This document shows positions 3,796 through 51,788 of a stretch of 51,848 bases of DNA, piece after piece. Within the stretch, counting starts at the first letter, position 1. Each line of letters starts with the position of its first letter. The stretch is taken from NCBI GenBank assembly GCA_045599405.1, contig JAZRVY010000097.1, forward strand, positions 1-51,848. The letters are read 5' to 3'. The DNA is from Anaeroplasmataceae bacterium (GTDB lineage: Bacteria; Bacillota_I; Bacilli_A; Acholeplasmatales; Anaeroplasmataceae). The position numbers and the translations under genes are program-made. The notes beneath the pieces are model-generated. The model worked only from the letters and a program-made list of their open reading frames with translations. It ran no database searches and was not told the origin of the DNA.

Positions 3796-3870
3796 CAAAA
3801 TTATTGTTATAGTATTAAATATAATACTACATAAAATTAATATGTGATAAAATAAGTCTAGGTGATACTA

Positions 3871-9940: not shown

Positions 9941-9944
9941 ATAA

Positions 9945-10020: not shown

Positions 10021-10025
10021 AAAAC

Positions 10026-10102: not shown

Positions 10103-10105
10103 AAG

Positions 10106-10181
10106 TGGCGGTTCGGACGGGACTTGAACCCGCGATCTCCAGTGTGACAGACTAGCATGTTAACCACTACACCACCGAACC
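10106..10181 (-). tRNA. tRNA-Asp (anticodon GUC)
   Basis: Reverse complement is GGTTCGGTGGTGTAGTGGTTAACATGCTAGTCTGTCACACTGGAGATCGCGGGTTCAAGTCCCGTCCGAACCGCCA, with the anticodon loop C-T-GTC-A-C. Confidence 0.9.
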
Positions 10182-10290: not shown

Positions 10291-11778
10291 TTATTCTTGC
10301 TCTTCTTCCTTCTCTTCCAGCTGTGCTAGCTTAGCATAAGACTTGATAGAAGCAATTGTATTATTTACTTGTGCCTTTGATGAATACATTTCTCCAGCAA
10401 CAACTAATCTCATTGCAGAATTATATAATCTAAATTGGAAGTTAGCATTCTTATCCTTAACAATTAGGAATTGTCCAGAATAGCATGCATCCTTAAATCT
10501 CTCTAGTGCTTCCTTACATGAAGATATAGATGAATAATCTTGGCTTGTTACAATCTTAACTCCGTTAGCTGCAACTAGTACATAAATGTATCCATGATCA
10601 TCCTTTTCAATTTCGAAATGTCCTGTATCCTTTTCCTCATAGTCTACATGAGCAATTTCTGTTGTAAGTCCACTCGAAGCCTCCTCATCAAATACAATAT
10701 TGTCAGTTCCAGCAAACTTCATAAATGACTCTGATGCTCCTTGAGCTGTAGCCTTAGAAGTGTATGAAGCAGATTGACATAAGATACGATTTTGCTTATT
10801 ACATAATGTAAAGAAATATAGATTATGCTTATCAGCATCTACCTTAATAATTCCATCAGTAAGATTTCTCTTAATTGTTTCAATACCATCACGGCATCCC
10901 TTTTCAGACATATAAGGTTCTGATACGATTAATGATTGACCATTTGATGCTTTTAATTGATATCTAAAGAATTCATTATCCTTAGTAATTACATACTTAC
11001 CTTGATATCTAGGTGCTTGTTGTTCCTCGGTAGCAGCAACAGCAGCAACTTCTTCTTTTGCTGGTTCATCTTCAGCAGTAGGTTCTTCTTCAGCAGGTTC
11101 TTCCTCTGGAGTCTCCTCTTGAGCTGGTTCTTCATCTAGTTCATCTTTCGATAATTCCTCTTTCTCTACAGGCTCTTCTTCTGGAGTTTCCTCTTGAGCT
11201 GGTTCCTCATCTAGTTCATCTTCCGATAATTCCTCTTCCTCTACAGGCTCTTCTTCTGGAGTTTCCTCTTGAACTGGTTCCTCATCTAGTTCATCTTCTG
11301 ATAATTCCTCTTCCTCTACAGGCTCTTCTTCTGGAGTTTCCTCTTGAACTGGTTCCTCATCTAGTTCATCTTCCGATAATTCCTCTTCCTCTACAAGCTC
11401 TTCCTCTGGAGTTTCCTCTTGAGCTGGTTCCTCATCTAGTTCATCTTCTGATAATTCCTCTTCCTCTACAGGCTCTTCTTCAGCTTCTTCTTCAGCTTCC
11501 TCTTGAGCAACTGGTTCTTCATCCTCTACAGGTTCTTCTTCAGCTTCCTCTTGAGCTGGCTCTTCATCCTCTACAGGCTCTTCTTCAGCTTCCTCTTCGT
11601 TAGCAATCTCCTCTTGTGTATCCTCTACAGGCTCCTCAACAGGCTTTGCGTTCTTCCCTTCATTTTTAATTTTATTATTAGATACAAATGCCATTACTAC
11701 AAAAGCTACTAATAATGCTCCTGCAATACCACATGCTATGTATCCAACTAATGCGTCAGCTAATAATATCATATTCAA
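10291..11778 (-). CDS. membrane-anchored polyacidic protein with four YegP/DUF1508-like repeats
   Basis: N-terminal TM helix (ILLADALVGYIACGIAGALLVAFVVMAFV). About 200 aa of E/P/D-rich repeats. Four C-terminal ~50-aa units of the DUF1508 pattern (FRYQLKASNGQSLIVSEPYMSEKGCRDGIETIK; YFFTLCNKQNRILCQSASYTSKATAQGASESF; YIYVLVAANGVKIVTSQDYSSISSCKEALERF; FQFRLYNSAMRLVVAGEMYSSKAQVNNTIASI). Confidence 0.8.
   Translation of the reverse strand: MNMILLADALVGYIACGIAGALLVAFVVMAFVSNNKIKNEGKNAKPVEEPVEDTQEEIANEEEAEEEPVEDEEPAQEEAEEEPVEDEEPVAQEEAEEEAEEEPVEEEELSEDELDEEPAQEETPEEELVEEEELSEDELDEEPVQEETPEEEPVEEEELSEDELDEEPVQEETPEEEPVEEEELSEDELDEEPAQEETPEEEPVEKEELSKDELDEEPAQEETPEEEPAEEEPTAEDEPAKEEVAAVAATEEQQAPRYQGKYVITKDNEFFRYQLKASNGQSLIVSEPYMSEKGCRDGIETIKRNLTDGIIKVDADKHNLYFFTLCNKQNRILCQSASYTSKATAQGASESFMKFAGTDNIVFDEEASSGLTTEIAHVDYEEKDTGHFEIEKDDHGYIYVLVAANGVKIVTSQDYSSISSCKEALERFKDACYSGQFLIVKDKNANFQFRLYNSAMRLVVAGEMYSSKAQVNNTIASIKSYAKLAQLEEKEEEQE
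11095..11475 (-). repeat. in-frame 75-bp tandem repeat, about 5 near-identical copies, encoding EELSEDELDEEPxQEETPEEEPVEE
   Basis: The marker string tt(c/t)(c/t)gataattcctc recurs at 11146, 11221, 11296, 11371 and 11446, an exact 75-nt period, with only a few substitutions between copies. Confidence 0.85.
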
Positions 11779-11893: not shown

Positions 11894-13225
11894 TTATGCT
11901 AAAACAGCATCTGCTCCCTTAACCTCTTTAACGATAGTTTGAGCAACTCTCTTACCATCAACCATTGATCTAACAACAGTGTCGGCACCACGAACGATAT
12001 CTCCTCCTGCATATACATCAGCAGCTGAAGTTTGATCATCTGTAGCTACAATATAGCCATGATCTTGAGCTAGTTCATTAGCCTCAATGAAATCCTTAGC
12101 TGGAGATTGTCCAATAGCTACGATAAAGTTATTGCACTCAAGCTCCTCATAAATTCCAGTTCCTTGTGGGCTTCTACGTCCAGATTCATCTGGCTCACCA
12201 AGCTCCATCTTTTCAACCTTAAGAGCCTTAATATGTCCGTTTTCATCCTTAATAACCTCTACTGGATTAGTTAAGAAATTAAATACTACACCTTCTTCAT
12301 CAGCCTCTTTCAATTCAACCTTTGAAGCAGGAGCCTCCTCTAGACTTCTACGATAAACAATCATAACCTCTGATCCGTCACCGATTCTAACAGCTGTTCT
12401 ACAAGCATCCATAGCTACGTTTCCAGCACCTACAACAATAGTACGTCCTGTAAGCTTAACCTCTTGTCCCATACCATAAGATACATAATTATTTACCTTC
12501 TTTAATAATGAGTTTGCATCAACAACACCAGCTGCATCCTCACCAGGAATTCTCATAGCCTTAGACTTTGTTAATCCTACTGATACAAATACCTTATTGT
12601 ATCCTTGAGCCTTAAGATCCTCAACCTTAACATCCTTCATATCTGAATTGAACTTAAATTCAACACCCATAGCCTCAATATTCTTGATATGCTCATTTAA
12701 AATCTTCTTTGGTAATCTATACTCAGGAATTCCATAAGCTGTAACTCCACCTGCGTAAGATTCACGCTCGAAAATTGTTGACTTAATTCCATTCTTTGCA
12801 AGCTCTAATGCACAAGAAAGTCCTGCTGGTCCAGCACCAATAATAGCTACCTTGTAGTTATCAACAAAGTTATCTACCTTCTTTAAAGGGAATTTAGCAT
12901 TGTCACCAACATATCTCTCAAGTCCTCCTACATTAATTGGATCTTGAGTCTTCATCTTATTTCTAATACAATTTCCAATACATTGCTTTTCATGAGCACA
13001 TACTCTAGAGCAAATTGGTGATAGATTTGTCATAGTAAAAATTAATTCATATGCATCATCTAATCTATCTTCCTTAATACACTTAATAAAATCAGGAATA
13101 GGAAGTCCTGCTGGACATCCCTTCTTACAAAATGGGTTCTTGCATTGTAAGCATCTATTTGCCTCTGCCATTGCCTCTTGTTTTGTCATTGTTCTTGTAA
13201 CTTCATTAAATCCGATCTTTCCCAT
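11894..13225 (-). CDS. GltD-family NAD(P)H-dependent FAD/Fe-S oxidoreductase (glutamate synthase small-subunit-like)
   Basis: N-terminal Cys clusters CLQCKNPFCKKGCPAG and CSRVCAHEKQCIGNC. Two dinucleotide folds (VAIIGAGPAGLSCALELA; IVVGAGNVAMDA). C-terminal VYAGGD motif. The physiological substrate cannot be assigned from sequence. Confidence 0.8.
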   Translation of the reverse strand: MGKIGFNEVTRTMTKQEAMAEANRCLQCKNPFCKKGCPAGLPIPDFIKCIKEDRLDDAYELIFTMTNLSPICSRVCAHEKQCIGNCIRNKMKTQDPINVGGLERYVGDNAKFPLKKVDNFVDNYKVAIIGAGPAGLSCALELAKNGIKSTIFERESYAGGVTAYGIPEYRLPKKILNEHIKNIEAMGVEFKFNSDMKDVKVEDLKAQGYNKVFVSVGLTKSKAMRIPGEDAAGVVDANSLLKKVNNYVSYGMGQEVKLTGRTIVVGAGNVAMDACRTAVRIGDGSEVMIVYRRSLEEAPASKVELKEADEEGVVFNFLTNPVEVIKDENGHIKALKVEKMELGEPDESGRRSPQGTGIYEELECNNFIVAIGQSPAKDFIEANELAQDHGYIVATDDQTSAADVYAGGDIVRGADTVVRSMVDGKRVAQTIVKEVKGADAVLA

Positions 13226-18516: not shown

Positions 18517-21072
18517 TTAAAGTGCTGAAGATACCTTTGAAAGAATTGTTCCTGCAAATGATTCAATAGGCGCCTCCTCATTATATGAATGATATAATGC
18601 GACAACATAAATATCAACTAATAATAAAGCTCTATTTGCTTTATTTTCAGGAAGATTTGAAAGGAATACTTTAACAAATTCAACCTCTAATACATTATCT
18701 GAAAGTAGCTTCATGTTTGTCTCATTATACATCACATTATTGGCAGCGCTATTAAATTCAACTTCAGCATTTAAATATATTTGCCATAAATATACAACAT
18801 GTGTGTCTACTTCAATATTAACCTTATTGTATTCAGCTATTACTGCTGCACTAGCTTGCTCATTAGTATCACATCTTGATACAATAGAATCCTTTAATGC
18901 CTCAATTACATCAGCAAAACCAGTAACAAGTGATGCAGCTAGCTCATCAATATCAGTAACATATTTTGCTATGATTTCATCAATTTCATTGACTGATGTT
19001 GCATCATCAATAGCAGCAGCTACAGCCTCTGTTAGATTATAAATTCCTTCATCAATTATATCCCAGTCTTCATTATCTACTTCATCATTTGCATTATATG
19101 CATAAACTGCATACTTATCAATTAAATCTATTTTTTCAAGCTTAATGTTAGATAATGCTGTGAAATCATCCTCTACTGCGTCAATTAATAAGCATGCCTC
19201 ATCATAAGCATCCTTAACAGCATCCTTTGAAGTAGCTGCGTTAATTAATGCCTTTGCATCAGCAAGAGCAAAATTATATTCTGCCTCATTAACTGTATAG
19301 TTAAATGGATCTGCCACCTTATAGGTTTTTATTAAAGTAATATATTTAGCAATCTCCTCTTCAAGCTCAGATGCCTTTGTTGGAATAGAATCTATTTGAA
19401 CCTTTAATTGCTCTAATAAAATATCTACATCAGCAGGACTAGTTTGTCTATTGATTTCTGCTGTTCCATTTTCAATAATTGAGGCAATACCAACTTGATT
19501 ATCAGTTGAATAATCAGCTAAATTTACATAGCTATTTAATTCACTAATTGCAAGAGCCTTACTATCATTTAAAATCTTATCTTGATTTGTAAACTCATCT
19601 AAGAATGTTTCTAATGCATCAGCAATAATTGTATCAATATCAGTCATAGCTGTTGCAGCTTGTAATAAGTCATTTGAGCTATTATACTTAGCCTCAATAT
19701 TTGGCTTAACAGTCTTATAAACTGCTTCACTATTCATATAATATTCCTTAGCTGCTGTTAATGCTTCAAGTGACTTTGATTTATATTGTTCTAGATTAAC
19801 AAGATTTGTACATGCAGCTAAATTATCAAGCTTAAGTGCATTGTCATAAGCCTTAAATTCAACGTGTGTAAAATATGAAGAAGCTAGTGCCTTTTTAGTC
19901 ACTAAATCATTATCATAATAAACACTAATTTCCTTATCAACATGATCAATATAAAGGTAAATGCTTAGTGTCTCATTTACTGCAATATTTTCAAATACCT
20001 CAGTTCCAACCTTTAGCTTTCCATTTGGTGTAACACTAATAGAAAGTACTAAGGAATTATCATTCATTAGATTAATATAATCATAGCTACTTTCTGATAG
20101 CGGATCCTCTTCTATCTCTCTTGTTAATGTAAATGTTATATACATTAATCCTGTATTATATCCATATCCAATATTTGCATAAGCCTTATTGTTGATAATT
20201 AATTGACCATTTACATTAGTTTCCTCTGATGAATAAACACCTTTTTTAATTACAGTTTGCTTAGCGATAGTACCACTGTTGAAATTTTCATCAAGAATAA
20301 CATTAGCCTGATGTCTTATACTTTCATATAAATCTAGCTTTATCCATTTTGCATATAAAACTGTATTAGCTTCAATAGTATCATTCAAATTAGCCTTATG
20401 TACAAAATTCATTTCATAATACCATCCATCAAATGCATAATTATCCTTCTTCATGTCATTTGGAAGATTAGATAGCTTATTACCCTTATACGAATCTATA
20501 GTCGTACCATTATTAGTAACAAATGAGATATTATATATATCAGTCCATTTAGCAATAAGCTTAACATCTGATGTTATCTCATCATTTAATTGTGCCTGTG
20601 TTCCATTTTCATAGAACCAACCTTCAAATATAGCATCAGCATATGTAAGCTCTGGTAGTATTTCAATCTTTGTTGCACCAACAATAGCCTCTGGTGCTGT
20701 ACCATATTTTGTTTCATATGTAATTGTAAGCTTTTGTGTCCACTTAGCTGTTAATGTTGTATTAGCGGTAATCTTATCTCCAATATTGGCCTTTGTATTA
20801 TTTTGATAATACCATCCATCAAAATAATATCCATCATCAGTAATCTCTGGTAGGCTAGTAATTGATGTTACACCTGTAACTTGTATAGGCGCGATACCTT
20901 TGTCTGTAACGTAAGTTACTGAATATGTAGTAACAACCACAGGTGGTCCTGGTGGTGGAGGCGTTGGTGTTGGCTTTATAGTATTTTTCTTTCCACAAGA
21001 TGCTCCAGCAACTAAAATAGTTCCAGCAACCGCTAAAGACACAAATATACTTCCTAGTTTTTTCTTATTCAT
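18517..21072 (-). CDS. surface lipoprotein with three Listeria-Bacteroides (Flg_new/InlB B-repeat type) repeats, a probable lectin-like jelly-roll domain and helical repeats
   Basis: Lipoprotein signal MNKKKLGSIFVSLAVAGTILVAGAS-C, then a PTPTPPPPGPP linker. Three ~65-aa units end in FDGWYY...L.AKW. The middle region (LIINNKAYANIGYGY...VEFKAYDNALKLDNLA) looks like a beta-sandwich. The C-terminal ~400 aa is helical repeat. Confidence 0.8.
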   Translation of the reverse strand: MNKKKLGSIFVSLAVAGTILVAGASCGKKNTIKPTPTPPPPGPPVVVTTYSVTYVTDKGIAPIQVTGVTSITSLPEITDDGYYFDGWYYQNNTKANIGDKITANTTLTAKWTQKLTITYETKYGTAPEAIVGATKIEILPELTYADAIFEGWFYENGTQAQLNDEITSDVKLIAKWTDIYNISFVTNNGTTIDSYKGNKLSNLPNDMKKDNYAFDGWYYEMNFVHKANLNDTIEANTVLYAKWIKLDLYESIRHQANVILDENFNSGTIAKQTVIKKGVYSSEETNVNGQLIINNKAYANIGYGYNTGLMYITFTLTREIEEDPLSESSYDYINLMNDNSLVLSISVTPNGKLKVGTEVFENIAVNETLSIYLYIDHVDKEISVYYDNDLVTKKALASSYFTHVEFKAYDNALKLDNLAACTNLVNLEQYKSKSLEALTAAKEYYMNSEAVYKTVKPNIEAKYNSSNDLLQAATAMTDIDTIIADALETFLDEFTNQDKILNDSKALAISELNSYVNLADYSTDNQVGIASIIENGTAEINRQTSPADVDILLEQLKVQIDSIPTKASELEEEIAKYITLIKTYKVADPFNYTVNEAEYNFALADAKALINAATSKDAVKDAYDEACLLIDAVEDDFTALSNIKLEKIDLIDKYAVYAYNANDEVDNEDWDIIDEGIYNLTEAVAAAIDDATSVNEIDEIIAKYVTDIDELAASLVTGFADVIEALKDSIVSRCDTNEQASAAVIAEYNKVNIEVDTHVVYLWQIYLNAEVEFNSAANNVMYNETNMKLLSDNVLEVEFVKVFLSNLPENKANRALLLVDIYVVALYHSYNEEAPIESFAGTILSKVSSAL

Positions 21073-32211: not shown

Positions 32212-32901
32212 CTAGCTATTTAGGAATTCATCTAGATTATCAATTCCCCATACATTCGAAGCACGGTTTGCTTGAACAATATCAATCGAGAATTGAACAT
32301 TTACCATGATTGATTCACGGTAAGAAATATTTGTTTCTGGTTCTGCATAATATGTTGAGTCAACGTCAAATGAGTATGAGTGACTTTCACTTGATGCAGC
32401 AACTGGCAGTTTTAAATATGCACAGTTAGTTGAAGCATCAAACTTCCAATTTGAATCTGTGATTGCGAATGGTGAAGTCGATGGCTTATTTGTATAAGTG
32501 TTTGTAATAACTGAGTTTGTATATACCTTTCTTGAAGTCCAAGTGTCTCTTATTTGAAGTCTTACATATACAAGCGTTGTATTAGTAAATGAGAACTTTA
32601 AACCAATTTGATTTAGGTAATCATATTCAAGCTCATCTGAATATCCATGCTTCTTTGATGCATAGCATGTAATTTTTGTTTCATTTACCTCTGCAGGTGT
32701 TGACTTTCTCTTAGCATTAAAGTCATCATCTACTCCATCAGAGTAATTTAAGAATGATTTGTTATCAATAGTTAGGCTTGCAAGACCAACCTCTTCATCC
32801 TTTGTTTCTCTATGGAAATAGTATGCCGCGCTAATAACAATTGTTGTCATAACTAAAATTGCAAGTGTTAGAGGTAAAATTATAAGCATTTTCTTTTTCA
32901 T
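32212..32901 (-). CDS. small secreted protein, TasA/camelysin-like (SipW-type signal peptide), paralog 3
   Basis: Signal MKKKMLIILPLTLAILVMTTIVISAAYYF. The C-terminal strand SIMVNVQFSIDIVQAN resembles the TasA-family terminal block (..QFSFEATQ..). It lies 4 nt downstream of paralog 2. Confidence 0.6.
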   Translation of the reverse strand: MKKKMLIILPLTLAILVMTTIVISAAYYFHRETKDEEVGLASLTIDNKSFLNYSDGVDDDFNAKRKSTPAEVNETKITCYASKKHGYSDELEYDYLNQIGLKFSFTNTTLVYVRLQIRDTWTSRKVYTNSVITNTYTNKPSTSPFAITDSNWKFDASTNCAYLKLPVAASSESHSYSFDVDSTYYAEPETNISYRESIMVNVQFSIDIVQANRASNVWGIDNLDEFLNS

Positions 32902-32905
32902 AATC

Positions 32906-33514
32906 TTACTCCTCCTTTATTGCAGTCATAGCAAGTACGTAGCTATAAGTTGCGCTTAGATAATCATTGTTTGATAATGCAACCGGATTAATTCCGTATA
33001 CATAAACATAAATGTCTGCTGTATCTTGTGGAGCTAGCGACTCAATAACATACTTGTTTGTTGTAATATCAGTCATCGAATTCTTCTCTAGGTAATCAGT
33101 TACTGTAGTTACTCCATCTCTTACATCATCATTTGCTTTTGTAAAATCCTTAGTTGCAATTGCTGACTCAATATGAGCCGCCTCTAAATCAACGCCCGTC
33201 ATATTTTGGTTTATTTCAATATCGATATTTACTCGACATTCATTTCTTAAAGTCACCTTAAAGATAAATGCCATTCTTCCAAGATATTGTCCTTCCTTTG
33301 GTGCTGTCTTATCAAAGAAGGCAATATTTTCAATATCTAAAGTTTTTACGTTATTGAATCTATCATCAACCTGATACGAGAATACGATACCAGTTGTAGA
33401 CGCATCAATAGGTTGAGTCTTATAACGTCTGATATACCATGCATGAGAAATTGTTGTTCCAATGATACAAGCTATTAGCATTAATCCAATAAATACAAAT
33501 AATTTCTTTTTCAT
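32906..33514 (-). CDS. small secreted protein with a SipW-type signal peptide, paralog 2
   Basis: Signal MKKKLFVFIGLMLIACIIGTTISHAWYI. Start set at 33514, after AAAGGAGG; the ORF-track start is 33532. Similar size and organisation to its two neighbours. Confidence 0.55.
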   Translation of the reverse strand: MKKKLFVFIGLMLIACIIGTTISHAWYIRRYKTQPIDASTTGIVFSYQVDDRFNNVKTLDIENIAFFDKTAPKEGQYLGRMAFIFKVTLRNECRVNIDIEINQNMTGVDLEAAHIESAIATKDFTKANDDVRDGVTTVTDYLEKNSMTDITTNKYVIESLAPQDTADIYVYVYGINPVALSNNDYLSATYSYVLAMTAIKEE

Positions 33515-33553: not shown

Positions 33554-34285
33554 CTAAGCTGTGAATGTTACGTTTAGATGGTCAATATGCATATTTTGAT
33601 ATGAATAACATGAGTTATCATCTAAATCTAAATATTCAAGTGCGAAATAACAATATTGAGCTCCACCCGATGTAATTTGTGCACCAGTTGGTCCAAGTAG
33701 TAAGTCATAGATTTCTCCTTTTTCAATTCCAGAGATATCAGCTTCCCAAGCTTCATAATCTACTCCATGACTTCCCATTGGGATTGTTGCCATCGCATGC
33801 TCGATTGCATATTCGTCATTTACGAACACTTCCCAAACATCCTGATCATTCATAGCAATATCGTATAGCACATCACCATTTTCTAATTTAACTTGATTGT
33901 TTTCGTCTATTTCAAATACTGTAACATCGTTATATACAAGAATCTTTTCAACCATATCAATTTCAAGCTCTTCAATCATCGTTGTTGATATGTCTTCAAA
34001 TTCTGCATTTACATTTACACTTGGCTGAGTTGTAGAAAGCTTAAATCTAAAATAAAATACATCTCCTGGCCACATATCCTCAAGCTCAATTTCCTCAAGG
34101 TATTCCCACTCACCCTTAACAGGATTATATGACTCTAATTGGAATGTGCATTCCTCTCCACCAATAGGAACTAGCAATCCACTTGTTGTTCTTTTATTGT
34201 TTGTAAACCAAGCAAAGCTGATTGCGAATGAAACCAAAATCACTAGGACAAACGAAATACTATAAATTATTAACTTTTTCTTCAT
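33554..34285 (-). CDS. small secreted protein, TasA/camelysin-like (SipW-type signal peptide), paralog 1
   Basis: Signal MKKKLIIYSISFVLVILVSFAISFAWFTNN, compared with TasA GGGTWAAFND and camelysin GTFAYFSD. It has an MWPGDVFYFRFKL block like the TasA LKPGD...F.F block. The ORF-track start at 34294 is GTG; the ATG at 34285 follows GAGGTGG. Confidence 0.65.
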   Translation of the reverse strand: MKKKLIIYSISFVLVILVSFAISFAWFTNNKRTTSGLLVPIGGEECTFQLESYNPVKGEWEYLEEIELEDMWPGDVFYFRFKLSTTQPSVNVNAEFEDISTTMIEELEIDMVEKILVYNDVTVFEIDENNQVKLENGDVLYDIAMNDQDVWEVFVNDEYAIEHAMATIPMGSHGVDYEAWEADISGIEKGEIYDLLLGPTGAQITSGGAQYCYFALEYLDLDDNSCYSYQNMHIDHLNVTFTA

Positions 34286-34308
34286 TTCTCCCACCTCTTT
34301 TGTTTATA

Positions 34309-34338
34309 AAAAAAGTTGCAACACAAAGTATTGCAACT
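34309..34338 (-). terminator. intrinsic terminator acting as the riboswitch expression platform
   Basis: Minus strand reads GUUGCAA-uacuuugug-UUGCAAC followed by U7. It sits between the aptamer and the ribosome-binding site of the first operon gene, not after any gene. Confidence 0.7.
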
Positions 34339-34407
34339 GGCTATCCATAATCGGACCCTTTAGCTTTGCGTCACTAGATTACTCTAGCTTTGCTAAATTA
34401 TACTTCT
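34326..34407 (-). promoter_or_regulatory. c-di-GMP-I (GEMM-I) riboswitch aptamer
   Basis: Minus strand reads AGCAAAGC-UAGA-GUAA-UCUA-GUGACGCAAAGCUAAAGGGUCCGAUUAUGGAUAGCCAG. It shows the conserved GCAAA, a GNRA-capped hairpin, the near-invariant GACGCAAAGC, and a second hairpin closed by GCUA/UAGC followed by C. This is the GEMM-I arrangement as I remember it from Vc2 and clostridial examples. Confidence 0.75.
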
Positions 34408-34474
34408 ATATTTTATAACTTATAACTATCTTTTTCAAGCCTTTTATATAGTATATATAAATATACGTACTTAA

Positions 34475-34503
34475 ATTATACCATTTTTTATATAGTATGA
34501 CAA
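34475..34503 (-). promoter_or_regulatory. near-consensus SigA promoter for the riboswitch-led operon (TTGTCA-N17-TGgTATAAT)
   Basis: Minus strand reads TTGTCA (34503..34498), an exact 17-nt spacer, then TGG plus TATAAT (34480..34475). The predicted leader is about 180 nt. Confidence 0.65.
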
Positions 34504-34515
34504 CCTTTTAGGACA

Positions 34516-34549
34516 AATAAAAATACCCCCTCACTTATAAGTGAGAGAG
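34516..34549 (-). terminator. intrinsic terminator after leuS
   Basis: Minus-strand hairpin CUCUCUCACUU / AAGUGAGGGGG (with G-U pairs) followed by UAUUUUUAUUU, about 10 nt below the leuS stop at 34559. Confidence 0.65.
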
Positions 34550-34558
34550 TATCTAGTG

Positions 34559-36961
34559 TTACTTAATTACAATGTTAACTATTTTCTTTGGAACAACAAT
34601 TGTTTTTACAATCTCATGCCCATCTGTAAACTTCTTGACTTGTTCTGAAGAAAGTGCCTTAGCTATCACATTTTCTTGAGTCTCATCTTGTGCAACCTCA
34701 ATCTTATCGCGAAGCTTTCCATTAACTTGAACAACCATGTTAACTGTCGCACTTACAAGCTTAGATTCATCGCATTTAGGCCAAGCTTCATATGCAATTG
34801 TATTGCTATGTCCAAGAATTTGCCATAGTTCCTCACAAATATGTGGAGTAATTGGAGAAAGCAATTTTACTAACCCTTCTACGTACTCAATATTAACAGC
34901 TGGAGCCTTAGTTGCTTCATTCATGAAAATCATCATTTGAGAAATTGCAGTATTAAAGTTTAATGAATCATAGTCACTAGAAACTTTCTTTACAGTTTGG
35001 TTATAAACCATATCTAGTGATGGTGTTTGATCCTTTGTAAATTTATCTGATGATGTTGTTACAAATCTATAAACTTTATCAATAAATCTACGTGCTCCAT
35101 CTAATCCTGTTGTACTCCAAGGCTTAGCTTGCTCTAGTGGTCCCATAAACATTTCATATAGACGTAATGTATCAGCTCCATAGTCTCTTACAACGTCATC
35201 TGGATTAATAACATTTCCACGTGATTTAGACATTTTTTCACCGTTTTCACCTAGAATCATTCCTTGGTGAACAAGCTTCTTAAATGGCTCCTTTACGGGT
35301 ACTATTCCCTTATCATAAAGGTAATTATTCCAGAAACGAGAGTATAATAAATGTCCTACTGCGTGCTCTGGTCCACCTAGATATAAATCTACTGGAAGCC
35401 AGTGCTTAAGTAACTCTTTATTAGCTAATTCATCATTATTTTGTGGGTCAATATAACGTAAGAAATACCAGCTTGAACCCGCAGATCCAGGCATTGTATT
35501 TGTCTCTCTTTTTCCGACCTTTCCCGTCACAGGATTAGTATATTTTTTCCATTCAGTTGCATTTTCAAGTGGTGCAGTACCATTAATTTTTGGCTTATAA
35601 TCATCTAATTCTGGTAGAACTAATGGTAGCTCAGAATCTAGTAAAGCCTCCGAATGATCATCATAATGAACAACTGGAATTGGCTCTCCCCAGTATCTTT
35701 GTCTAGCAAAAATCCACTCTCTTAAACGGTATGAAATCTTCTTAGATCCAATTCCCTTAAACTCAAGGAATTCAATCATTTTGTTGATTGCATCCTCCTT
35801 GTTAAGTCCGTTTAAGAACTCTGAATTAATATGAAGCCCATCATCCTCGTATGCGTGCTCAGAAATATCTCCACCATCAAGAACTTGGATAATTTCTAGG
35901 TTAAATTTCTTTGCAAAATCATAGTCTCTTTGGTCATGTGCAGGAACAGCCATAATAGCCCCTGTACCATATGATGCAAGTACATAATCCGAAATGTAGA
36001 TAGGAATTTCCTTACCATTAACAGGATTAATAGCATATGCTCCTGTAAAGGCTCCCGTCTTTTCTTTGTTTAATTCTGTACGCTCAAGCTCTGACTTTGA
36101 TGCGCACTCTGCCTTATATGCTTCTACTACAGCCTTTTGAGCTGCAGTTGTAATCACATCAACAAGCTTATGCTCAGGTGCCATAACACAATATGTCGCA
36201 CCAAATAATGTGTCACATCTAGTTGTAAACACAGTAAATGATTCGTTAGTATTTTTAATTTTAAATGTTACGTGAGCTCCTATTGATTTACCAATCCAGT
36301 TACGTTGCATTTCCTTAGTAGATTCAGGCCAATCTATTTCATCAAGACCATCAATTAATCTTTCAGCATACTTAGGAATATCCATAACCCATTGCTTCAT
36401 ATTTTTTCTTACAACAGGGAATCCTCCACGCTCAGATTTACCATCAATAATTTCATCATTCGCAAGAACTGTACCTAGCTCCTCACACCAGTTAACTGGC
36501 ATATCAATTTGCTTAGCTAATCCATCATTGAACAGTTGCTTAAAGATCCATTGTGTCCACTTATAGAATGATGGATCACATGTCGAAACCTCTTTAGACC
36601 AGTCAAAAGAGAATCCTAGCATCTTTAATTGTCTAGTGAATGTTTCAATGTTCTTCTTTGTAAATCCTTCAGGATGATTTCCAGTCTTAATTGCAAATTG
36701 TTCTGCAGGTAAACCAAAGGAATCATATCCCATTGGGTGAAGAACATTATATCCTTCCATTCTCTTCTTTCTACAAACTATATCTGTTGCAGTATATCCC
36801 TCTGGATGTCCAACATGTAAACCTTGTCCAGATGGATATGGGAACATATCTAACGCATAAAATTTAGGCTTAGAGAAATCCCATACATCAGTCTTAAATG
36901 TATCATTCTCTTCCCAATATTTTTGCCACTTTTTTTCTATTTCTGTATGATTGAATTCCAT
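34559..36961 (-). CDS. leuS: leucine--tRNA ligase
   Basis: [16 protein letters not shown] (HIGH-type motif), the CP1 editing domain, KMSKSRGN (KMSKS) and an 800-aa length are typical of bacterial LeuRS. Confidence 0.96.
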
Positions 36962-37017
36962 ATATAATCATCTCCATTAAAAAACACTTTAATATTTTAT
37001 CATAAAATTTATAAATT

Positions 37018-44883: not shown

Positions 44884-47718
44884 TTAATTTAATTCAATTG
44901 ACCAATCGTATGCAGATGTAATCCAATCTTGGAATAAAGTATATTCAGAATATGTATAGCTGAATAACTCTCTTTCAAGCTTTGCAATATAAGTATCCAT
45001 CTTACTAGCATCATCAGTAAATGTGATACTAATTTGGTTCTTTAGCATTCTCCACTCCTTGAAGTTAGAGTTGTTATACATATTAACCATTTCACCAAAT
45101 AGCTTAGATATATTACTTGTTACACTTGATGGTAACGACTTAACAGAACCACCATTTGTAGTCTCATAATAATAAATGAATAATTGGCTAGTTGAAGCAT
45201 AAACTGACTTATCATTATAAGCATCAGCGTATAATACTAATTCAGGATCATCATCCTTATCACCATTATAATCAATATCAGCCTCTACAATAATTTCTCT
45301 ATGCTCATATACCTTATATTGTGGATCAGTTCTATCTGAATCATCCTTATCATCATCTTTAGAATATGATGCAGAAGATAGCTCACCAATCTTATAAACA
45401 TTTAGCATATGATATCCATATACTGTCTTACAGCACTTGTCATAGAAATCCTCAACGCTAGCGAAGTTTGTACTATATTCAAATACTCCCTTATCCTCAA
45501 CGTCAGACTCCTTAATAGTTCCGTCCTTTACAGCCTTATAAAGCTTCTTTGCAGCATCATCAAACTCTGACATATAAGATCCAGCATTAGATGTTGAAAT
45601 CTCATTTAAATCCTCAGCCTTTAATGAAATTGGGAATTCATTCTTATATTCATCCCAATATACAGCAGTACCTTGGTTATAAGATGCCGAACCAACCTTA
45701 AGGTTATTATTATAAGCATTAACGATATAAGCTAAAACATCCTTAATATTCTTATAATTCTTTAAAGTATTAACCTCATCAATAATAGTATTAGCAAGTC
45801 TTAAAATAGTAGCATCAAACTTAGTCTTTAATGCTTCACTTGAAAGATTATCTCTATAAACTGAAGGGTCAGTATAATTTCCAGTTCCCTCTTCATCAAC
45901 TCCAATAAGAATATGAGAAATAGATGCACTGAAATAATTATCATATTGCTTCTTATAGATAGATGCTAGATTAGTAAATACCTTATCCTCTGTATTAAAT
46001 GACTCAGCATCATCAGCCTTAGCGTGATTTCCATTATAAGCCATAGCAAGTGTCTTAATTAATGAAGCCTTATAATTATCAAGAACCTCTTCCTTAGTGC
46101 TTACACCATAAGCAAGTTGTAGGTAGTTAGCTACCCCAATCTTCTTTGAGTAGTCCTTCTTTCCTTGATTAAACTTCTTAATTTCCTTATTTAATTCTGA
46201 CTTATAATCATCAAATCCATCATTATCAATCTTCTTAGATATATTTTCTAATGATAAATAGTATTGATTTGATAAATAATTAATAGCCTTAGCTGTACCT
46301 AATTTAGGCTCTAGCTTTTCATATAGTTTCTCTACTGATAAATCATAAGTAACATTTTCATAAGTAAACTTATAAACTAAATCATTATTAGCAACACTAG
46401 TTAAATCATAATCATCATATGATGACTTAAACTTAACAGCGTACACTGGATCATAAATCTCAATGTTCTTTTCGATAATCTCATCATATCTATCATTCTC
46501 TAGTTTACTTACTAAAGTTGAAATAGCTTTATTTTCAATTGCCTTTTCTAATGTTTTATTATAAATATTATCAGCAACTTCAGGATTCTTATCATTATCT
46601 GTTAGCTCATCCCATTCAACTATATCTTGCTTTTCAATTACATAAACCATGTAATATGATCCATCAAAGTTAAATGGCTCTGCTAAATATGTTCCAGCAG
46701 TAACATCATCATTCTTAATATATGATTGAACTTGAACTGGAAGAGATGTGAATCTCTTATTCTTTGGAGTTTCACTTAAATTAGTATAATAATTATCTTG
46801 ATAATTAGAAACTGTTAAATCATCTCTAGTTACATATCTTAAATTATAAATACTTAAATATGATTCTAATGCATTAGCATCTGTAATTTGTGTATCTCCA
46901 ATTGCAGATTTAATGATTCTTTCAGCTTGAGCTTGGCTTGTAAACTTAATTACAATTCCCTTATAGTCTCTAAATGATTTATAAACATCATTATAGAATT
47001 TTTTAACATCATTTTTCTTATCTGCTATATCTGTATTAATATAATATGGATTCTTTCCCTCACCCTTAATATATTCATTCTTGAAATAATATTTAGAGTT
47101 AGGATTCTTGATTTGTGATAATGCATATTTTTCCATAGCCTTACCATAAATTGAGCTTTCATATAACTCCTTAGGGAATTGTGCAGTAAATGCATCATTT
47201 CCATATTCATGATATCCTGTAGTAATCTCAATAGACTTAATATCATCTACAGTAAAGAAGGTTCCATCTGCCTTCTTTGTTCCAGCAGCAAATAAACCAT
47301 CAACATACTTTTGAATTTTAGTATTAACTTCCTTACTAAAAGTCTTAGTAGCGAAATCAATCTTTAAATTATTAAATGATTCAGCATCATTTACTCCATA
47401 GATGCTACCAACAAGATTATTATTGATATAATAATGATCCTCTAAATTATTAGCATAATCAAAATACTCAGTATTTGTTAATACATCTGAGAACAAATCC
47501 TTCTTAATGCTGTCTGTTACTGTTGAATAACCATCAGCACGCATTAAATCATATAGCTTCTTTTGAGATATAGACTTATCTCCTAGTGTTGCATAGCTCT
47601 TTGTATCACTTAAATTTCCATAAGAAGCTTGTGAATTAACCTTTGCTCCACTACCACAAGAGGCAAGAGATAAAGCGATGCATCCTGCGATAGGTAAAAA
47701 TAATAATTTCTTATTCAT
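44884..47718 (-). CDS. giant PrsA-like foldase lipoprotein (expanded parvulin-type PPIase domain, both conserved His retained)
   Basis: Lipoprotein signal LFLPIAGCIALSLAS-C. The parvulin blocks SASISHILIG ... MSEFDDAAKKLY ... TVYGYHMLNV are separated by long insertions. Confidence 0.75.
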   Translation of the reverse strand: MNKKLLFLPIAGCIALSLASCGSGAKVNSQASYGNLSDTKSYATLGDKSISQKKLYDLMRADGYSTVTDSIKKDLFSDVLTNTEYFDYANNLEDHYYINNNLVGSIYGVNDAESFNNLKIDFATKTFSKEVNTKIQKYVDGLFAAGTKKADGTFFTVDDIKSIEITTGYHEYGNDAFTAQFPKELYESSIYGKAMEKYALSQIKNPNSKYYFKNEYIKGEGKNPYYINTDIADKKNDVKKFYNDVYKSFRDYKGIVIKFTSQAQAERIIKSAIGDTQITDANALESYLSIYNLRYVTRDDLTVSNYQDNYYTNLSETPKNKRFTSLPVQVQSYIKNDDVTAGTYLAEPFNFDGSYYMVYVIEKQDIVEWDELTDNDKNPEVADNIYNKTLEKAIENKAISTLVSKLENDRYDEIIEKNIEIYDPVYAVKFKSSYDDYDLTSVANNDLVYKFTYENVTYDLSVEKLYEKLEPKLGTAKAINYLSNQYYLSLENISKKIDNDGFDDYKSELNKEIKKFNQGKKDYSKKIGVANYLQLAYGVSTKEEVLDNYKASLIKTLAMAYNGNHAKADDAESFNTEDKVFTNLASIYKKQYDNYFSASISHILIGVDEEGTGNYTDPSVYRDNLSSEALKTKFDATILRLANTIIDEVNTLKNYKNIKDVLAYIVNAYNNNLKVGSASYNQGTAVYWDEYKNEFPISLKAEDLNEISTSNAGSYMSEFDDAAKKLYKAVKDGTIKESDVEDKGVFEYSTNFASVEDFYDKCCKTVYGYHMLNVYKIGELSSASYSKDDDKDDSDRTDPQYKVYEHREIIVEADIDYNGDKDDDPELVLYADAYNDKSVYASTSQLFIYYYETTNGGSVKSLPSSVTSNISKLFGEMVNMYNNSNFKEWRMLKNQISITFTDDASKMDTYIAKLERELFSYTYSEYTLFQDWITSAYDWSIELN

Positions 47719-47730: not shown

Positions 47731-50700
47731 CTACTTTAAAATCTCTATCCACCAATTAGGGAAGTCGAAATATTCATCTTGAGTATATCCATCGATATAT
47801 TCAGCATAGTTAACGTATTCATCAGATATTCTTTGGTTAACCTTTCTAATCTTCTCTAATCTAGCATTATTTTCAGGGTTGTCAATAAATTGAACTGAAT
47901 TAGATAATAGCTTATTTAATAATAGTTCTAATTGAGTTTGTGTTCCTGTATATTTTGTATAAACAGGCATAATATAGCTTGTAATATAATCTTGAATTGA
48001 GCTTGGGAATAATGTACTTGTATTGTAATTTAAATATTCATAAATGAATAATTGGATTTGATCAAGAGTTGCCTCATCCTTAAGATCATTATAAATATTT
48101 CCAATTACAGCAGTATCATCCTCATATCTTACAAAGATATTAGTATAAATACCAGCAATATCATCCTTCTCTTCAAACTTAGCAGTATTTCTTACTGTAG
48201 CGCTTGAAATAACTAATAGCTCATATCCCTTTTCTGTTTTCCATCCATCATTTCCAGCAGCATATGGCTCGAAATCAACGTATTCGCTTGGATATAAATC
48301 CTTCATAGAAATTGAATTATATAAATCCTTAACCTTTTCCTTAACATACATAGCATTGTCAGTGTCTGTTAATTCATTGCTAACAGCATCATGTGTGTTA
48401 ATTGACATATATAATCCAGCTCTCTTATACTCAGCCCAAATAGTTTCTGGTTGAGTTGGATCATAATCATCCATTCCAGGTCCTGTATATTCATCAATAC
48501 CATTTGTAAATCTTTGACTATTCTTATACTCATCAACAATTGATTCAAGAGTTGATAATTGGTTAGCCTCATTCTTCATTCTAGTTAATGTATATCTAAT
48601 TAACTTTAATGCAAGCTCACTATATGTAATAGGAGCTGATGATGTTGGAACTTGTGTATTCCAATCAAAATCCTTATCCTCTTTTCCATCCTCATCCATA
48701 TCAACATAAACTGTTAATCTTGAAGCACTTGCAGTGAAATCTTGATTATAAGCTAGCTTGGCGTATGATTGAACCATTTCATAGAATGCCGTATTGTTAG
48801 CATAGTTAGTTAAAATCTTAGCTGAAGCAGCATTTACACGATAATAATTTGCAACAATCTTATCTACATCTGCAGTATGGAAATATAACATTAAGAAATT
48901 ATACTTACCAATTGATGAATCATACTCACTTAAAGATCCATTAGCAAAATAAGCTAATAATAAATCTAGAGTATTCTTGTAATCTTTAATATCATCCTTA
49001 GTATCATTATACTCTGGTGTATCCTTAATAGCCTTCTTTGAAAGCATATCTACAGCCTTAGTAACACCACTACCCTTTTCAAGTTGCTCAAATAACTCAT
49101 CAATTGTGATGTTATAAGCTTTCTTTGAAGTATGAGAGTTCTTTCCAGAATACTTAAGAGTAATTGCTACATTTGACTTAGGTGCATTCTTATGAGTCTT
49201 TGAATATGAGCTTACTCCTGTAGAGTAAAGAATCTCAAGTCCACTATCATAAATGTAAGCCTTAGTCTTTTCAGTTGCAGCTCTAACAGCAAGGTTGATT
49301 GCAGTTTGATCTACCTCATCCCACATCATTTCTTCCTTAAGCTCCGCAACTAAATCTTCATGTCCATTAATTACTGTATCCTCATATGGATCATTTAATA
49401 GCTCATAATAGCTATCAATTTCACCTTGATCAATTTTGAAAGCCATATAATAGAAATTATTATAGTTCTTTCCAGAAGTAGAATAACGAGCCTCACCCTC
49501 TGAATAAACAGGAATTGTTCTAAGCTCCTTATTAATATAGAACTTTAGGTTTGTATCAATATCATCAAGTCCATCTTGAGTATATGTAATAGACTCCTTA
49601 ACATCATTAGCCCATGATGAAATAATGTCTGATGCATCCTTATAATCTTCATCTGCCATATTTACATACTTAACAACGATAGATTCAGTTACATCACGAC
49701 AATTTGATGATGTAAATGCAGATGAAATTACACCTGGCTCAACTGGTAATGAATCTCTATATGCATAAATGTAGTTGTACATTTGAACATATAATTCGAA
49801 TACAGCTGTTTCTCCACCAATTGTAGATAAATTAAAACACTTTTCAGAATCTGATGCAGCATTAATCTTAAAATCATCATAGTATTCATTATATTCAGTA
49901 TTAGTCTTTCCATTTTGAGGAATAAAATAGAATGTATCATTATAAGCCTTGATACCAAAAGCCTTTAATGTTGAATTAATTTCATCCTCATTATTAAATC
50001 TAATCATGATAGCTTGGCTATCTGCAGACCATTGATAATGCTCTGAATGATATTGAATAATTTCCTTATCTGTATAATATGGATCCTCATCTGAAGACTT
50101 ATTCTTATCATGCTTAGCTATATCATCTACCTTTTGGTAATATGCATATAGCTTTTGAGCTCCTGAATACTTGAAATTCTCATAGTAATTGTAAAGATAA
50201 TATTTTGTTTCTAAATTAGTTCCAGCGAATAATGTAATAGCATTGTTTTCTAAATTCTCATAATTCATAAACTCATTTAGAGTATATTCCTTACCCTCAG
50301 CAACATATGCAGTATCAATATAAGTTTGAACTGATTTAGTTACACTCTTAATCTCATTCTTCTTTAATTTTTCCATATTAGTAGTAGCATAAATACCAAT
50401 AAATGCTTGTTCTTCTAGATAATCAAAGATTAGCTTTTGCATGTGTGTAGAAATCGAAGATGTTCCCTTAATACCATTTAAAGCTTCTTCAATTTCAGCA
50501 ATACATTCACCCATCAAATATTTAGTCATGTGCTCATTTATTGCATCTGATGCTTCCCACTTTAATTCTTCCCAAAGTTCTCCCTTTGTTACTGTATATG
50601 TCTTTCCACCATATGTAGCTTGGGCATAAATATCCTTAGCTCCAATAGACTTTGTTGAAGTCTTTTTACATGATGTAAGTCCTACAACAGATAATACTGC

Positions 50701-50745
50701 AAGAGAACCTAATAGAATTGTCTTAATTTTAGTTCTTTTATACAT
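47731..50745 (-). CDS. giant PrsA-like lipoprotein paralog with a degenerate parvulin domain
   Basis: Lipoprotein signal MYKRTKIKTILLGSLAVLSVVGLTS-C. It is paralogous to its downstream neighbour (FTASASRLTVYVDMDEDG vs FSASISHILIGVDEEG; TEKGYELLVI vs TVYGYHMLNV). Start set at 50745, after AAGGAGA. The ORF-track start is 50802. Confidence 0.75.
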   Translation of the reverse strand: MYKRTKIKTILLGSLAVLSVVGLTSCKKTSTKSIGAKDIYAQATYGGKTYTVTKGELWEELKWEASDAINEHMTKYLMGECIAEIEEALNGIKGTSSISTHMQKLIFDYLEEQAFIGIYATTNMEKLKKNEIKSVTKSVQTYIDTAYVAEGKEYTLNEFMNYENLENNAITLFAGTNLETKYYLYNYYENFKYSGAQKLYAYYQKVDDIAKHDKNKSSDEDPYYTDKEIIQYHSEHYQWSADSQAIMIRFNNEDEINSTLKAFGIKAYNDTFYFIPQNGKTNTEYNEYYDDFKINAASDSEKCFNLSTIGGETAVFELYVQMYNYIYAYRDSLPVEPGVISSAFTSSNCRDVTESIVVKYVNMADEDYKDASDIISSWANDVKESITYTQDGLDDIDTNLKFYINKELRTIPVYSEGEARYSTSGKNYNNFYYMAFKIDQGEIDSYYELLNDPYEDTVINGHEDLVAELKEEMMWDEVDQTAINLAVRAATEKTKAYIYDSGLEILYSTGVSSYSKTHKNAPKSNVAITLKYSGKNSHTSKKAYNITIDELFEQLEKGSGVTKAVDMLSKKAIKDTPEYNDTKDDIKDYKNTLDLLLAYFANGSLSEYDSSIGKYNFLMLYFHTADVDKIVANYYRVNAASAKILTNYANNTAFYEMVQSYAKLAYNQDFTASASRLTVYVDMDEDGKEDKDFDWNTQVPTSSAPITYSELALKLIRYTLTRMKNEANQLSTLESIVDEYKNSQRFTNGIDEYTGPGMDDYDPTQPETIWAEYKRAGLYMSINTHDAVSNELTDTDNAMYVKEKVKDLYNSISMKDLYPSEYVDFEPYAAGNDGWKTEKGYELLVISSATVRNTAKFEEKDDIAGIYTNIFVRYEDDTAVIGNIYNDLKDEATLDQIQLFIYEYLNYNTSTLFPSSIQDYITSYIMPVYTKYTGTQTQLELLLNKLLSNSVQFIDNPENNARLEKIRKVNQRISDEYVNYAEYIDGYTQDEYFDFPNWWIEILK

Positions 50746-50846
50746 AAAAAAGTCTCCTTTTTTGGCGAAATAATACAATTCACGCATTATATATAATATC
50801 ATTATATCTTTTAAAAATCAAGGAATATCTCAATTTATCATACTAA

Positions 50847-50872
50847 TAAAAAAAAGCCTTTTTTCAAGGCTT
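50847..50872 (-). terminator. intrinsic terminator after the YhaM-like gene
   Basis: Minus-strand hairpin AAGCCTT-gaaaa-AAGGCTT overlaps the stop codon and is followed by TTTTTTTTATTAG. Confidence 0.6.
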
Positions 50873-51788
50873 AATTCTTTCTCTTATAAAACTTTGTTTT
50901 ATCCATTACACCAATGGCTTCAGTAAACTTTCCAGGCTCAGTCTTTGCAAGCTCTTCACCTAAAACTCTAAACTTAGAATCTATAGTGTCTATATACCAT
51001 AATAACGCAGCCTCTGCTACTGCTGGCTTTTTAATAGCTCCGAATAATGGTTGCCCATGATGTGAGGCTATCATATGCTCAAGGATTAGAACCTCTTCTT
51101 TACCATCATATCCTAGGCTAGCTGCAACACCTTTTATTTCTGTACAACCCATTAATAAATGACCTAGTAATTGACCTTCTATAGTATATTCTGTATTCTC
51201 AATACCACTAAACTCAGATACCTTTCCTATATCATGAAGTATAATACCTGCATACATATAGTTCTTATCAATGTAATCATAATTTGCAGCAAGACCATCT
51301 ACAAGATTTAGCATACCAAGTGTATGATATGCTAGCCCACCAACATACGCATGATGTAGCTTAGATGCTGCAGGATATAAATAAAATTCCTTATCATATT
51401 TATCTAATAAAGCTTTTGTAATATCAAATAAAATCTTATTATCAATCTTATTTAAATATCCTTGGATACTCTTTTTTAAATTACTATAATCTATAGGAGC
51501 CGATTTTATAAACTCTCTATATATATCATTTTGTAAATTAGCATCCTCTATATCTGTTACTGATTTAAATTCATTAACATATCCTATATTACGCTCAGTA
51601 TTTCTATACTTTGCAATATTAAACCAATAGATACAATTAACGTAAATACCATTAGCTCTTTCTGCCTCTAGCTTTAAATTTATCTTTTCACTTGATTTTG
51701 GTTGTGAAACAATAAGATTAATCATATTATCAGAATTCATTATTTGATCTACCTTTGCATATAGATCTATCTTTTCAATATCTTCCAT
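50871..51788 (-). CDS. yhaM: HD-domain 3'-5' exoribonuclease, YhaM-like
   Basis: HHAYVGGLAYHTLGM, the HD motif ILHDIGKV, GHLLMG and MIASHHG match the YhaM-type HD phosphohydrolase core. The ATG at 51788 follows AAGGAAGAG, but the frame stays open to the window edge, so the true start could lie outside the window. Confidence 0.8.
   Translation of the reverse strand: MEDIEKIDLYAKVDQIMNSDNMINLIVSQPKSSEKINLKLEAERANGIYVNCIYWFNIAKYRNTERNIGYVNEFKSVTDIEDANLQNDIYREFIKSAPIDYSNLKKSIQGYLNKIDNKILFDITKALLDKYDKEFYLYPAASKLHHAYVGGLAYHTLGMLNLVDGLAANYDYIDKNYMYAGIILHDIGKVSEFSGIENTEYTIEGQLLGHLLMGCTEIKGVAASLGYDGKEEVLILEHMIASHHGQPLFGAIKKPAVAEAALLWYIDTIDSKFRVLGEELAKTEPGKFTEAIGVMDKTKFYKRKN

Follow-up and report, generated by a model that had tools for sequence, protein, structure and literature searches.

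Downstream of leuS (34559..36961, minus strand) in a 51,848-nucleotide (nt) stretch of Anaeroplasmataceae DNA (contig JAZRVY010000097.1, positions 1 to 51,848; hereafter the window), a gap of 264 nt separates the gene from the next open reading frame (ORF; GTG at 34294). A first-pass annotation, made from the letters alone, had proposed that this gap is not empty and holds, on the minus strand, the terminator of leuS, a near-consensus promoter and a riboswitch for cyclic di-GMP (c-di-GMP) with its own terminator, all in the leader of an operon for surface proteins. Indeed, we found each of these elements in place on that strand, and the quoted leader string, AGCAAAGC-UAGA-GUAA-UCUA-GUGACGCAAAGCUAAAGGGUCC-GAUUAU-GGAUAGCCAG, was exact. 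Judged by its sequence, the RNA of the leuS gap is a genuine member of the class-I cyclic-di-GMP riboswitch family (c-di-GMP-I, or GEMM-I), and we consider it likely that this leader acts as a transcriptional ON switch, with c-di-GMP as its most likely ligand, for an operon that encodes a giant protein of 3687 amino acids (aa). The leader is organized as follows.

34521..34554 (−), intrinsic terminator of leuS: a 15-pair stem with 5 G-C pairs, then a T-run, directly past the leuS stop codon (34559)
34475..34503 (−), predicted sigma-70-type promoter TTGTCA-17-TGgTATAAT: 11/12 matches, extended −10 TG
34410..34438 (−), second promoter-like site TTGAAA-17-TAAAAT: 10/12 matches
34329..34404 (−), c-di-GMP-I (GEMM-I) aptamer, GYRA-tetraloop 'type II' form (RF01051)
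34308..34338 (−), intrinsic terminator (expression platform): 11-bp stem AGUUGCAAUAC/GUGUUGCAACU, UUU loop, U7
34283..34299 (−), ribosome-binding site (RBS) AAGAGGTGG and ATG of gene 1

Two terminator-like sites were found within 1 kb, where 0.3 would be expected by chance. The stronger promoter would place the transcription start near 34468, leaving a highly AU-rich spacer of ~65 nt (34405-34468, −) before the aptamer. The weaker site would start RNA near 34403, where the P1 5′ strand of the aptamer begins, and may be a chance match in this AT-rich background (5 such sites found, 4.2 expected). For gene 1, the ATG at 34285, 5 nt past the RBS (34299..34291), is a likelier start than the GTG at 34294.

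The leader aptamer and its recurrence in related operons

Assignment to GEMM-I was borne out by the covariance model of the family. In a cmscan search with Rfam 15, RF01051 matched 34329..34404 (−) with 51.5 bits, against a gathering score of 35, and an E-value of 2.9e-7 for the whole window on both strands. The match spanned model positions 1-87 of 87, was not truncated, and was the sole riboswitch match in the whole window. The elements that define the family (a GC-closed first hairpin with a GUAA tetraloop, the junction, a second hairpin with an AG bulge and the C92 equivalent) were all present. In the numbering of Vc2, the GEMM-I structural reference from Vibrio cholerae, they are as follows.

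34368..34393 (−), first hairpin (P2), GC-AAA-GCUAGA-GUAA-UCUAGU-GAC-GC, from the sequence and the RF01051 alignment
34367 (−), A47 equivalent (the intercalating adenine), inside the invariant GACGCAAAGC, from RF01051 and an alignment of eight leaders
34335..34365 (−), second hairpin (P3), AGCU-AAA-GGGUCC-GAUUAU-GGAU-AG-CC-AGUU, with an AG bulge and the G83 equivalent at 34341
34333 (−), C92 equivalent, from the RF01051 alignment (model ..cUgCC.. against window ..GUUGCA..), within the 5′ arm of the terminator

The first hairpin carries a GNRA tetraloop (GUAA, 34382..34379) and the closing pairs G21-C46 and C22-G45, with the C44 equivalent at 34370 (−). Both the junction GACGCAAAGC (34372..34363) and the AG bulge of P3 (34342-34341) are invariant in the eight leaders; with ACGCAAAGC, A47, C44 and a G83 partner in the bulge all in place, a C44/G83 tertiary pair is predicted. 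The C at 34333 lies opposite the conserved C that follows ..cUg in the model, the position (C92) that makes the Watson-Crick contact to G-beta of the ligand. The aptamer belongs to type II, defined by a GYRA tetraloop and no receptor (PMC11218506): GUAA is such a loop, and P3 is a short hairpin that lacks the 11-nt receptor. The RNA thus resembles Vc2 in its architecture, the 27-nt spacing from position 20 to A47, the C44/G83 equivalents, C92 and the ACGCAAAGC junction, but differs from it in having A20, a GUAA loop and a short receptor-less P3 (type II), where Vc2, a type I aptamer of picomolar affinity, has G20 and a receptor for its GAAA tetraloop.

To our initial search for further copies, made with word-index methods from gene 1 and the N-terminus of the giant protein, almost nothing answered, and the contig of the sole giant homologue found starts at that gene. 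An exhaustive phmmer search, however, gave a gene 1 family of 52 clusters, and a profile search retrieved 34 proteins. Contigs were fetched for 11 proteins of this family, and ten of them carry the same module (a gene 1 family member, two more small genes and a giant gene of 3720-3849 aa) in unrelated neighbourhoods. Its genes are 23-47% identical to those of the window; no match was found for gene 2 in three copies and for gene 1 in two. Altogether the four-gene operon occurs at 13 loci in different neighbourhoods, and at 11 of these a GEMM-I aptamer stands just upstream, the exceptions being loci L003 and L083. Six relatives (L082, L084, L085, L086, L087 and L088) gave RF01051 matches of 53.8-61.3 bits, 40-56 nt upstream of gene 1; three contigs (L089-L091) begin inside the aptamer and gave 5′-truncated matches to R1, a lineage model built from eight sequences including the window; and a metagenomic copy of the operon (L155) also carries the aptamer. 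R1 scores the window aptamer at 96.5 bits, a value that is not independent evidence since the window is among its eight source sequences. The layout of the window leader, with a promoter upstream, an overlapping terminator and then RBS and ATG, is repeated in the relatives.

Base pairing in the aptamer is supported by covariation. In an alignment of eight full-length aptamers (the window and seven relatives), 99.3% of the cells were paired and 7 of the 18 base pairs showed compensatory changes; none of 500 shuffles reached the observed score, and slid controls were 21-43% paired. In the first hairpin, five of the six stem pairs and one of the two closing pairs were compensatory. In P3, helices 3 and 4 were 98-100% paired; one of their pairs is compensatory and two vary on one side only.

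Further GEMM-I copies were seen around these loci. Three independent contigs start inside the aptamer (L089 1-60, L090 1-43 and L091 1-43), and that of L002 ends 91 nt after leuS (12404-12494). Assemblies seem to break at the aptamer, which suggests several near-identical riboswitch copies per genome. Locus L082 has a second RF01051 aptamer (827-901, 56.3 bits, G20), 4 kb upstream of its giant-operon riboswitch and ahead of five small unannotated genes (954-4489; 238, 161, 261, 257 and 215 aa, one with a faint LRR_4 match), so the cyclic-dinucleotide regulon of these bacteria extends beyond the giant operon. On several metagenomic contigs, two or three GEMM-I aptamers stand in tandem at spacings of 40-120 nt (L153 7298-7568; L172 101-380; L164, two to three copies on the minus strand; L105; L142). 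One locus, L092 (1-395, 5001-6266), has homologues of genes 1 and 2 without giant gene or riboswitch.

Overlap of the aptamer and the terminator

The first-pass annotation had read the terminator as GUUGCAA-N9-UUGCAAC-U7. It is present and stronger than described, as the stem extends to 11 bp (hairpin 34338..34314, U-run to 34308, −). Its 5′ arm is made of the 3′ strand of P3 (AGUU), G91, C92 and the 3′ strand of P1. Consistent with this overlap, 11 nucleotides of the aptamer 3′ side pair downstream in the minimum free energy (MFE) structure of the unconstrained window leader. When the aptamer helices are imposed, the fold is just 5.6 kcal/mol less stable and only a 7-bp hairpin is left, with AAC between the hairpin and the U-run. 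Since the 5′ arm of the terminator is the aptamer's own 3′ strand, ligand binding and the terminator cannot coexist.

It had also been proposed that GUUGCAA pairs with the 5′ flank to close P1, and that P1 and the terminator are therefore exclusive. A P1 helix can form between GUAUAAUUU and AAUAC (as GUAU/AUAC, or as U19-A93 and U18-A94 only), but GUUGC does not pair with GUAUAAUUU and instead makes up P3, G91 and C92. The two structures are indeed exclusive, though mainly through the base of P3 and C92 rather than through a strong P1.

The sharing of nucleotides between the terminator and the aptamer 3′ side recurs in every homologous leader, and supports the earlier proposal that c-di-GMP is an ON signal. 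In the MFE structure, the window and six of the seven full-length relatives form the terminator from 10-15 nt on the 3′ side of the aptamer that pair downstream, and the terminator sequences differ. In L085, the 3′ arm of the terminator, CAAAUAGGAC-U8, captures the 5′ arm of P3 instead. For the second copy in L082 (L082b) the MFE structure is a long-range fold of another kind, and aptamer and terminator are seen to overlap only when the sequence is read. This recurrence of the overlap indicates that the ON logic is conserved, and an architecture that is conserved without conservation of sequence argues for a ligand-ON transcriptional switch.

We infer the following mechanism. The transcript would start at the near-consensus promoter, or possibly at the weaker site that directly precedes the aptamer. 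In the absence of ligand, the 11-nt AGUUGCAAUAC would pair with GUGUUGCAACU to form the intrinsic terminator, followed by U7, and transcription would stop before the RBS. With ligand bound, four of these 11 nt (AGUU) would close P3, the C92 equivalent would base-pair with one of the ligand's guanines, and AA(UAC) would help to close the short P1. This would keep the terminator from forming at its base, where it adjoins the U-tract, and RNA polymerase would read through into the genes for three small signal-anchored proteins, the 3687-aa membrane-anchored giant and, probably, the 851-aa lipoprotein. In the aptamer-enforced fold, AGAAGU at the 3′ end of the AU-rich spacer can pair with ACUUUU (3′ arm of the terminator and U-tract); this single-sequence prediction describes a pairing that may reinforce antitermination.

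The same structures bear on whether the leader could act as an OFF switch, or control translation rather than transcription. OFF-acting GEMM-I riboswitches such as Bc1 do exist, and the RBS of gene 1 lies only ~9 nt past the U-run. However, binding and the terminator are incompatible here, there is no alternative antiterminator for ligand binding to disrupt, the RBS AAGAGGTGG is unpaired in both the unconstrained and the aptamer-enforced fold, and all relatives have the same layout. We therefore regard OFF or translational control as extremely improbable.

As an ON switch, the leader has a validated counterpart in Bc2 of Bacillus thuringiensis, an ON-type GEMM-I riboswitch that works by competition of terminator and antiterminator upstream of a collagen adhesin (PMC4933901; PMC11218506). 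Like Bc2 (B. thuringiensis/cereus, cap), the window leader combines, in a member of the Bacillota, a class-I aptamer with an intrinsic terminator, predicted ligand-prevented termination and a large surface or adhesion protein. Unlike Bc2, it resides in a wall-less gut bacterium of the Anaeroplasmataceae, precedes an operon of 4-5 genes with a 3687-aa protein that lacks a family, and has A20.

Position 20 and the choice of ligand

One binding-site position of the window aptamer departs from its relatives.

34394 (−), position-20 equivalent: the base is A in the window and lies 27 nt 5′ of the A47 equivalent (34367)

This A occupies the column immediately 5′ of the first GC pair, a conserved G in the cmscan alignment (G20 of Vc2), and its spacing from A47 is that of Vc2 (20/47), Vc1 (12/39) and Bc1 (11/38). 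The binding-site signature at 20/47/92 is thus A-A-C. G20, the residue of c-di-GMP-selective aptamers that is missing here, recognizes the ligand's G-alpha, and cGAMP-sensing GEMM-Ib RNAs have A in its place (PMC6140456; cGAMP, cyclic GMP-AMP). Position 20 is G in all seven full-length relatives, where the MAFFT alignment is gap-free, and in L155. In 126 metagenomic aptamers collected by a DNA-pattern scan for the subtype core, position 20 was G in 94 and A in 32 (25% A), in many environments. A20 is normal variation within RF01051 and, being a known natural state of the family, bears on selectivity and not on membership. In characterized RNAs, A20 weakens the binding of c-di-GMP and lets 3′,3′-cGAMP bind, and by itself it makes Vc2 G20A and Cbe 1-2, a natural A20 aptamer of a Clostridium, bispecific. 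Going by the bases alone, the ligand could be c-di-GMP, 3′,3′-cGAMP or both. We favour c-di-GMP with relaxed specificity as the most likely case, because homologous operons in related bacteria carry a canonical G20 aptamer.

Several observations weigh against control of this operon by c-di-GMP. Among the nine leaders in which position 20 can be read, eight have G and the window alone has A. Mutation of G20 in Vc2 lowers c-di-GMP binding by up to 30,000-fold. Vc2 G20A binds c-di-GMP at 53 nM, not in the picomolar range, and cGAMP at 120 nM (PMC6140456). P1 of the window is weak in either of its pairings and is not conserved among the relatives. The two closest LeuS relatives that have the operon, L003 (where it is syntenic) and L083, have leaders without a riboswitch, which shows that riboswitch control is dispensable in the clade. 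Finally, a search of the 51.8-kb window found no diguanylate cyclase or phosphodiesterase gene (GGDEF, EAL or HD-GYP). The GGDEF motif was also absent from the related loci fetched (1.58 Mb), although this was a motif scan only and such small neighbourhoods, unlike whole genomes, are uninformative. One HD protein (50871..51788) was considered as an HD-GYP phosphodiesterase and rejected, as its motifs (HHAYVGGLAYHT, HDIGK and SHHG) fit a YhaM-type nuclease and GYP is absent. On the other side, Acholeplasma laidlawii, from the related wall-less order Acholeplasmatales, has 14 GGDEF/EAL proteins (PMC2408644), in favour of c-di-GMP signalling in the wider group.

The A at position 20 raises the question of whether the window copy has been rewired into a GEMM-Ib-like sensor, which would use the same ON terminator and answer to 3′,3′-cGAMP, or equally to cGAMP and c-di-GMP. 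The A-A-C signature matches that of cGAMP riboswitches, in which A replaces G20 (PMC6140456), a single A20G change is enough to make a Geobacter GEMM-Ib RNA selective for c-di-GMP (PMC6456294), and Vc2 G20A, as noted, binds both ligands. Like the Geobacter GEMM-Ib RNAs (for example Gs1761/pgcA), the window leader has A20 and is read as an ON switch with a terminator. Those RNAs, however, favour cGAMP by up to ~1200-fold and are part of a Hypr-GGDEF (GacA) pathway that controls exoelectrogenesis genes, unlike the window leader, whose relatives are canonical G20 aptamers and whose genomic context is unrelated. Selectivity for cGAMP has up to now been linked to RNAs of the Geobacter type, which have further determinants in P1, and A20 occurs in a quarter of similar aptamers from many environments. 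As the homologous operons use G20 aptamers, the ancestral signal would be c-di-GMP. No cGAMP synthase is known from the lineage of the window, which may also count against a cGAMP sensor.

The nearest characterized model for the binding pocket is Cbe 1-2 of Clostridium beijerinckii, another GEMM-I aptamer of the Bacillota. This natural A20 aptamer prefers c-di-GMP (30 nM) over cGAMP (463 nM) (PMC6140456); the likeness is by position 20 and description, not by sequence comparison, and the affinities are those of Cbe 1-2, not of the window. Taken with these points, a cGAMP-responsive switch in the window is unlikely, and c-di-GMP is the ligand that we retain.

Alternatively, the G20A change may have crippled binding in a clade that is losing control, leaving the leader as a decaying relic that works as a constitutive attenuator or leaky terminator. 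This would fit the strong loss of affinity that G20 mutations can cause, the solitary A among the nine leaders and the state of the nearest relatives, which lost or never had the riboswitch. LeuS of the window is 87% and 82% identical to that of Anaeroplasmataceae metagenome-assembled genomes (MAGs), and 66-77% identical to that of other gut Anaeroplasmataceae/'Tenericutes' MAGs. The closest relative by LeuS is L002; L083 is from the same MAG (87% LeuS). In L003 (82%), tblastn synteny placed the same operon directly after leuS. In L006 (77%), leuS is followed by DAHP synthase and aro genes with no operon, so the operon is a ~16-kb accessory insertion between leuS and the aro genes; the tRNA cluster found at 9868-10181 (−) of the window lies ~8 kb from leuS in L006, which helped to show the insertion. 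No GEMM-I was found by Rfam in the eight nearest leuS loci (L002-L009), by a motif screen of the 81 loci fetched at that stage, or by a search of the leuS loci with R1. The leaders of L003 (12500-12659) and L083 (4900-5003) share, by eye, GUAUAAUUAyAAUGAGAUrG and the RBS AGAGGGGAG. They look homologous to each other, as if the riboswitch leader had been lost or replaced just once in the clade nearest to the window.

Decay of the window copy itself is, however, difficult to reconcile with its state of preservation. Apart from position 20, the conserved positions are all intact, as are the 18 modelled pairs, and the score is well above gathering. With a terminator this strong, an ON switch that no longer worked would keep the 16-kb operon silent, yet the 3687-codon ORF is intact. 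Moreover, A20 variants are common and functional in nature, and two metagenomic loci, L161 and L162, carry a near-identical A20 aptamer. We thus consider a relic quite improbable and return to a working c-di-GMP-I ON switch.

The aptamer itself is ordinary, another example of a well-characterized RNA class with a known mode of action. What the analysis adds is its conserved link to an unannotated giant-protein operon in gut Anaeroplasmataceae, the A20 state of the window copy and the apparent loss of the riboswitch from the nearest relatives. The leader offers a regulatory handle, a firm and testable input, on a conserved operon without any annotation, its ~3,700-aa protein included, found in a gut lineage that is uncultured and wall-less. 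The operon should be turned on when cyclic dinucleotides are abundant, a behaviour that points to a role in attachment to surfaces. The 11 aptamer-bearing copies among 13, the two without, and the eight G20 leaders beside one A20 form a natural series for changes in specificity and in regulon membership.

Tentatively, the two lines can be joined: the four-gene module would be an undescribed cyclic-dinucleotide-induced surface structure of wall-less gut Anaeroplasmataceae, composed of a ~3,700-aa giant and three small proteins whose signal-anchor N-termini have F-A-W-[YF]..N in common, and G20A would have retuned the input of the window copy, through lower sensitivity to c-di-GMP or cross-talk with cGAMP, with sister lineages dropping the riboswitch. 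The module could be an adhesion or fibre apparatus that replaces cell-wall-anchored adhesins. We regard this joint reading as possible but doubtful; if it is true, the retuning and the sister losses are a natural snapshot of the turnover of riboswitch specificity and regulon.

Operon products and neighbouring genes

The operon under the leader comprises the following genes.

33554..34285 (−), gene 1, 243 aa: N-terminal signal anchor and all-beta domain; small unannotated family
32906..33514 (−), gene 2, 202 aa: N-terminal signal anchor; shares with gene 1 only the N-terminal ~50 residues; homologues in all but two of the related operon loci compared
32212..32901 (−), gene 3, 229 aa: signal anchor; best conserved small gene, 23-47% identity
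21133..32196 (−), giant gene, 3687 aa: N-terminal membrane anchor; homologues of 3720-3849 aa at the same operon position
18517..21072 (−), 851-aa lipoprotein gene: three Listeria-Bacteroides (Flg_new) repeats; lipobox LVAGASC

The lipoprotein gene is possibly the last of the unit. A terminator scan of the stretch from the giant gene through the lipoprotein gene to tyrA found none, and aro genes lie downstream of the lipoprotein gene.

The first four proteins gave no Pfam, NCBIfam or PDB sequence match. A structure model of gene 1 (pLDDT 87.2) showed an N-terminal helix and an all-beta domain, and had no significant fold match in the PDB, the best being the TasA fibre (E-value 0.012, TM-score 0.22). 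A TasA/camelysin identity for the small proteins was therefore set aside as a lead only: a single family member gave a weak Peptidase_M73 match (E-value 0.054), and the TasA fold match is insignificant. Paralogy of the three small proteins was likewise rejected, as only their first ~50 residues align. The operon had been described as one for surface proteins. The signal anchors and the lipobox make this plausible, though no assignment to a family backs it; from these features and the regulatory logic, we infer a surface or fibre apparatus. At L092, the locus with genes 1 and 2 and no giant, a weakly matched Peptidase_S26 (signal peptidase I) gene lies 4.6 kb upstream, a possible link, by sequence match, to SipW/TasA-like processing.

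Elsewhere in the window, two adjacent genes encode large lipoproteins without a Pfam family (44884-47718 and 47731-50802, −; 944 and 1023 aa), with lipoboxes LASCG and LTSCK and homologues at the same place in related MAGs. leuS itself follows a membrane-transporter gene after a 56-nt gap (36962-37017) with no T-box leader; a T-box stands upstream of leuS in more distant relatives (L007 9759-9958, L008 9440-9622). A cluster of four tRNA genes (9868-10181, −) adjoins a gene for a 495-aa protein with two DUF1508 repeats (10291-11778, −).

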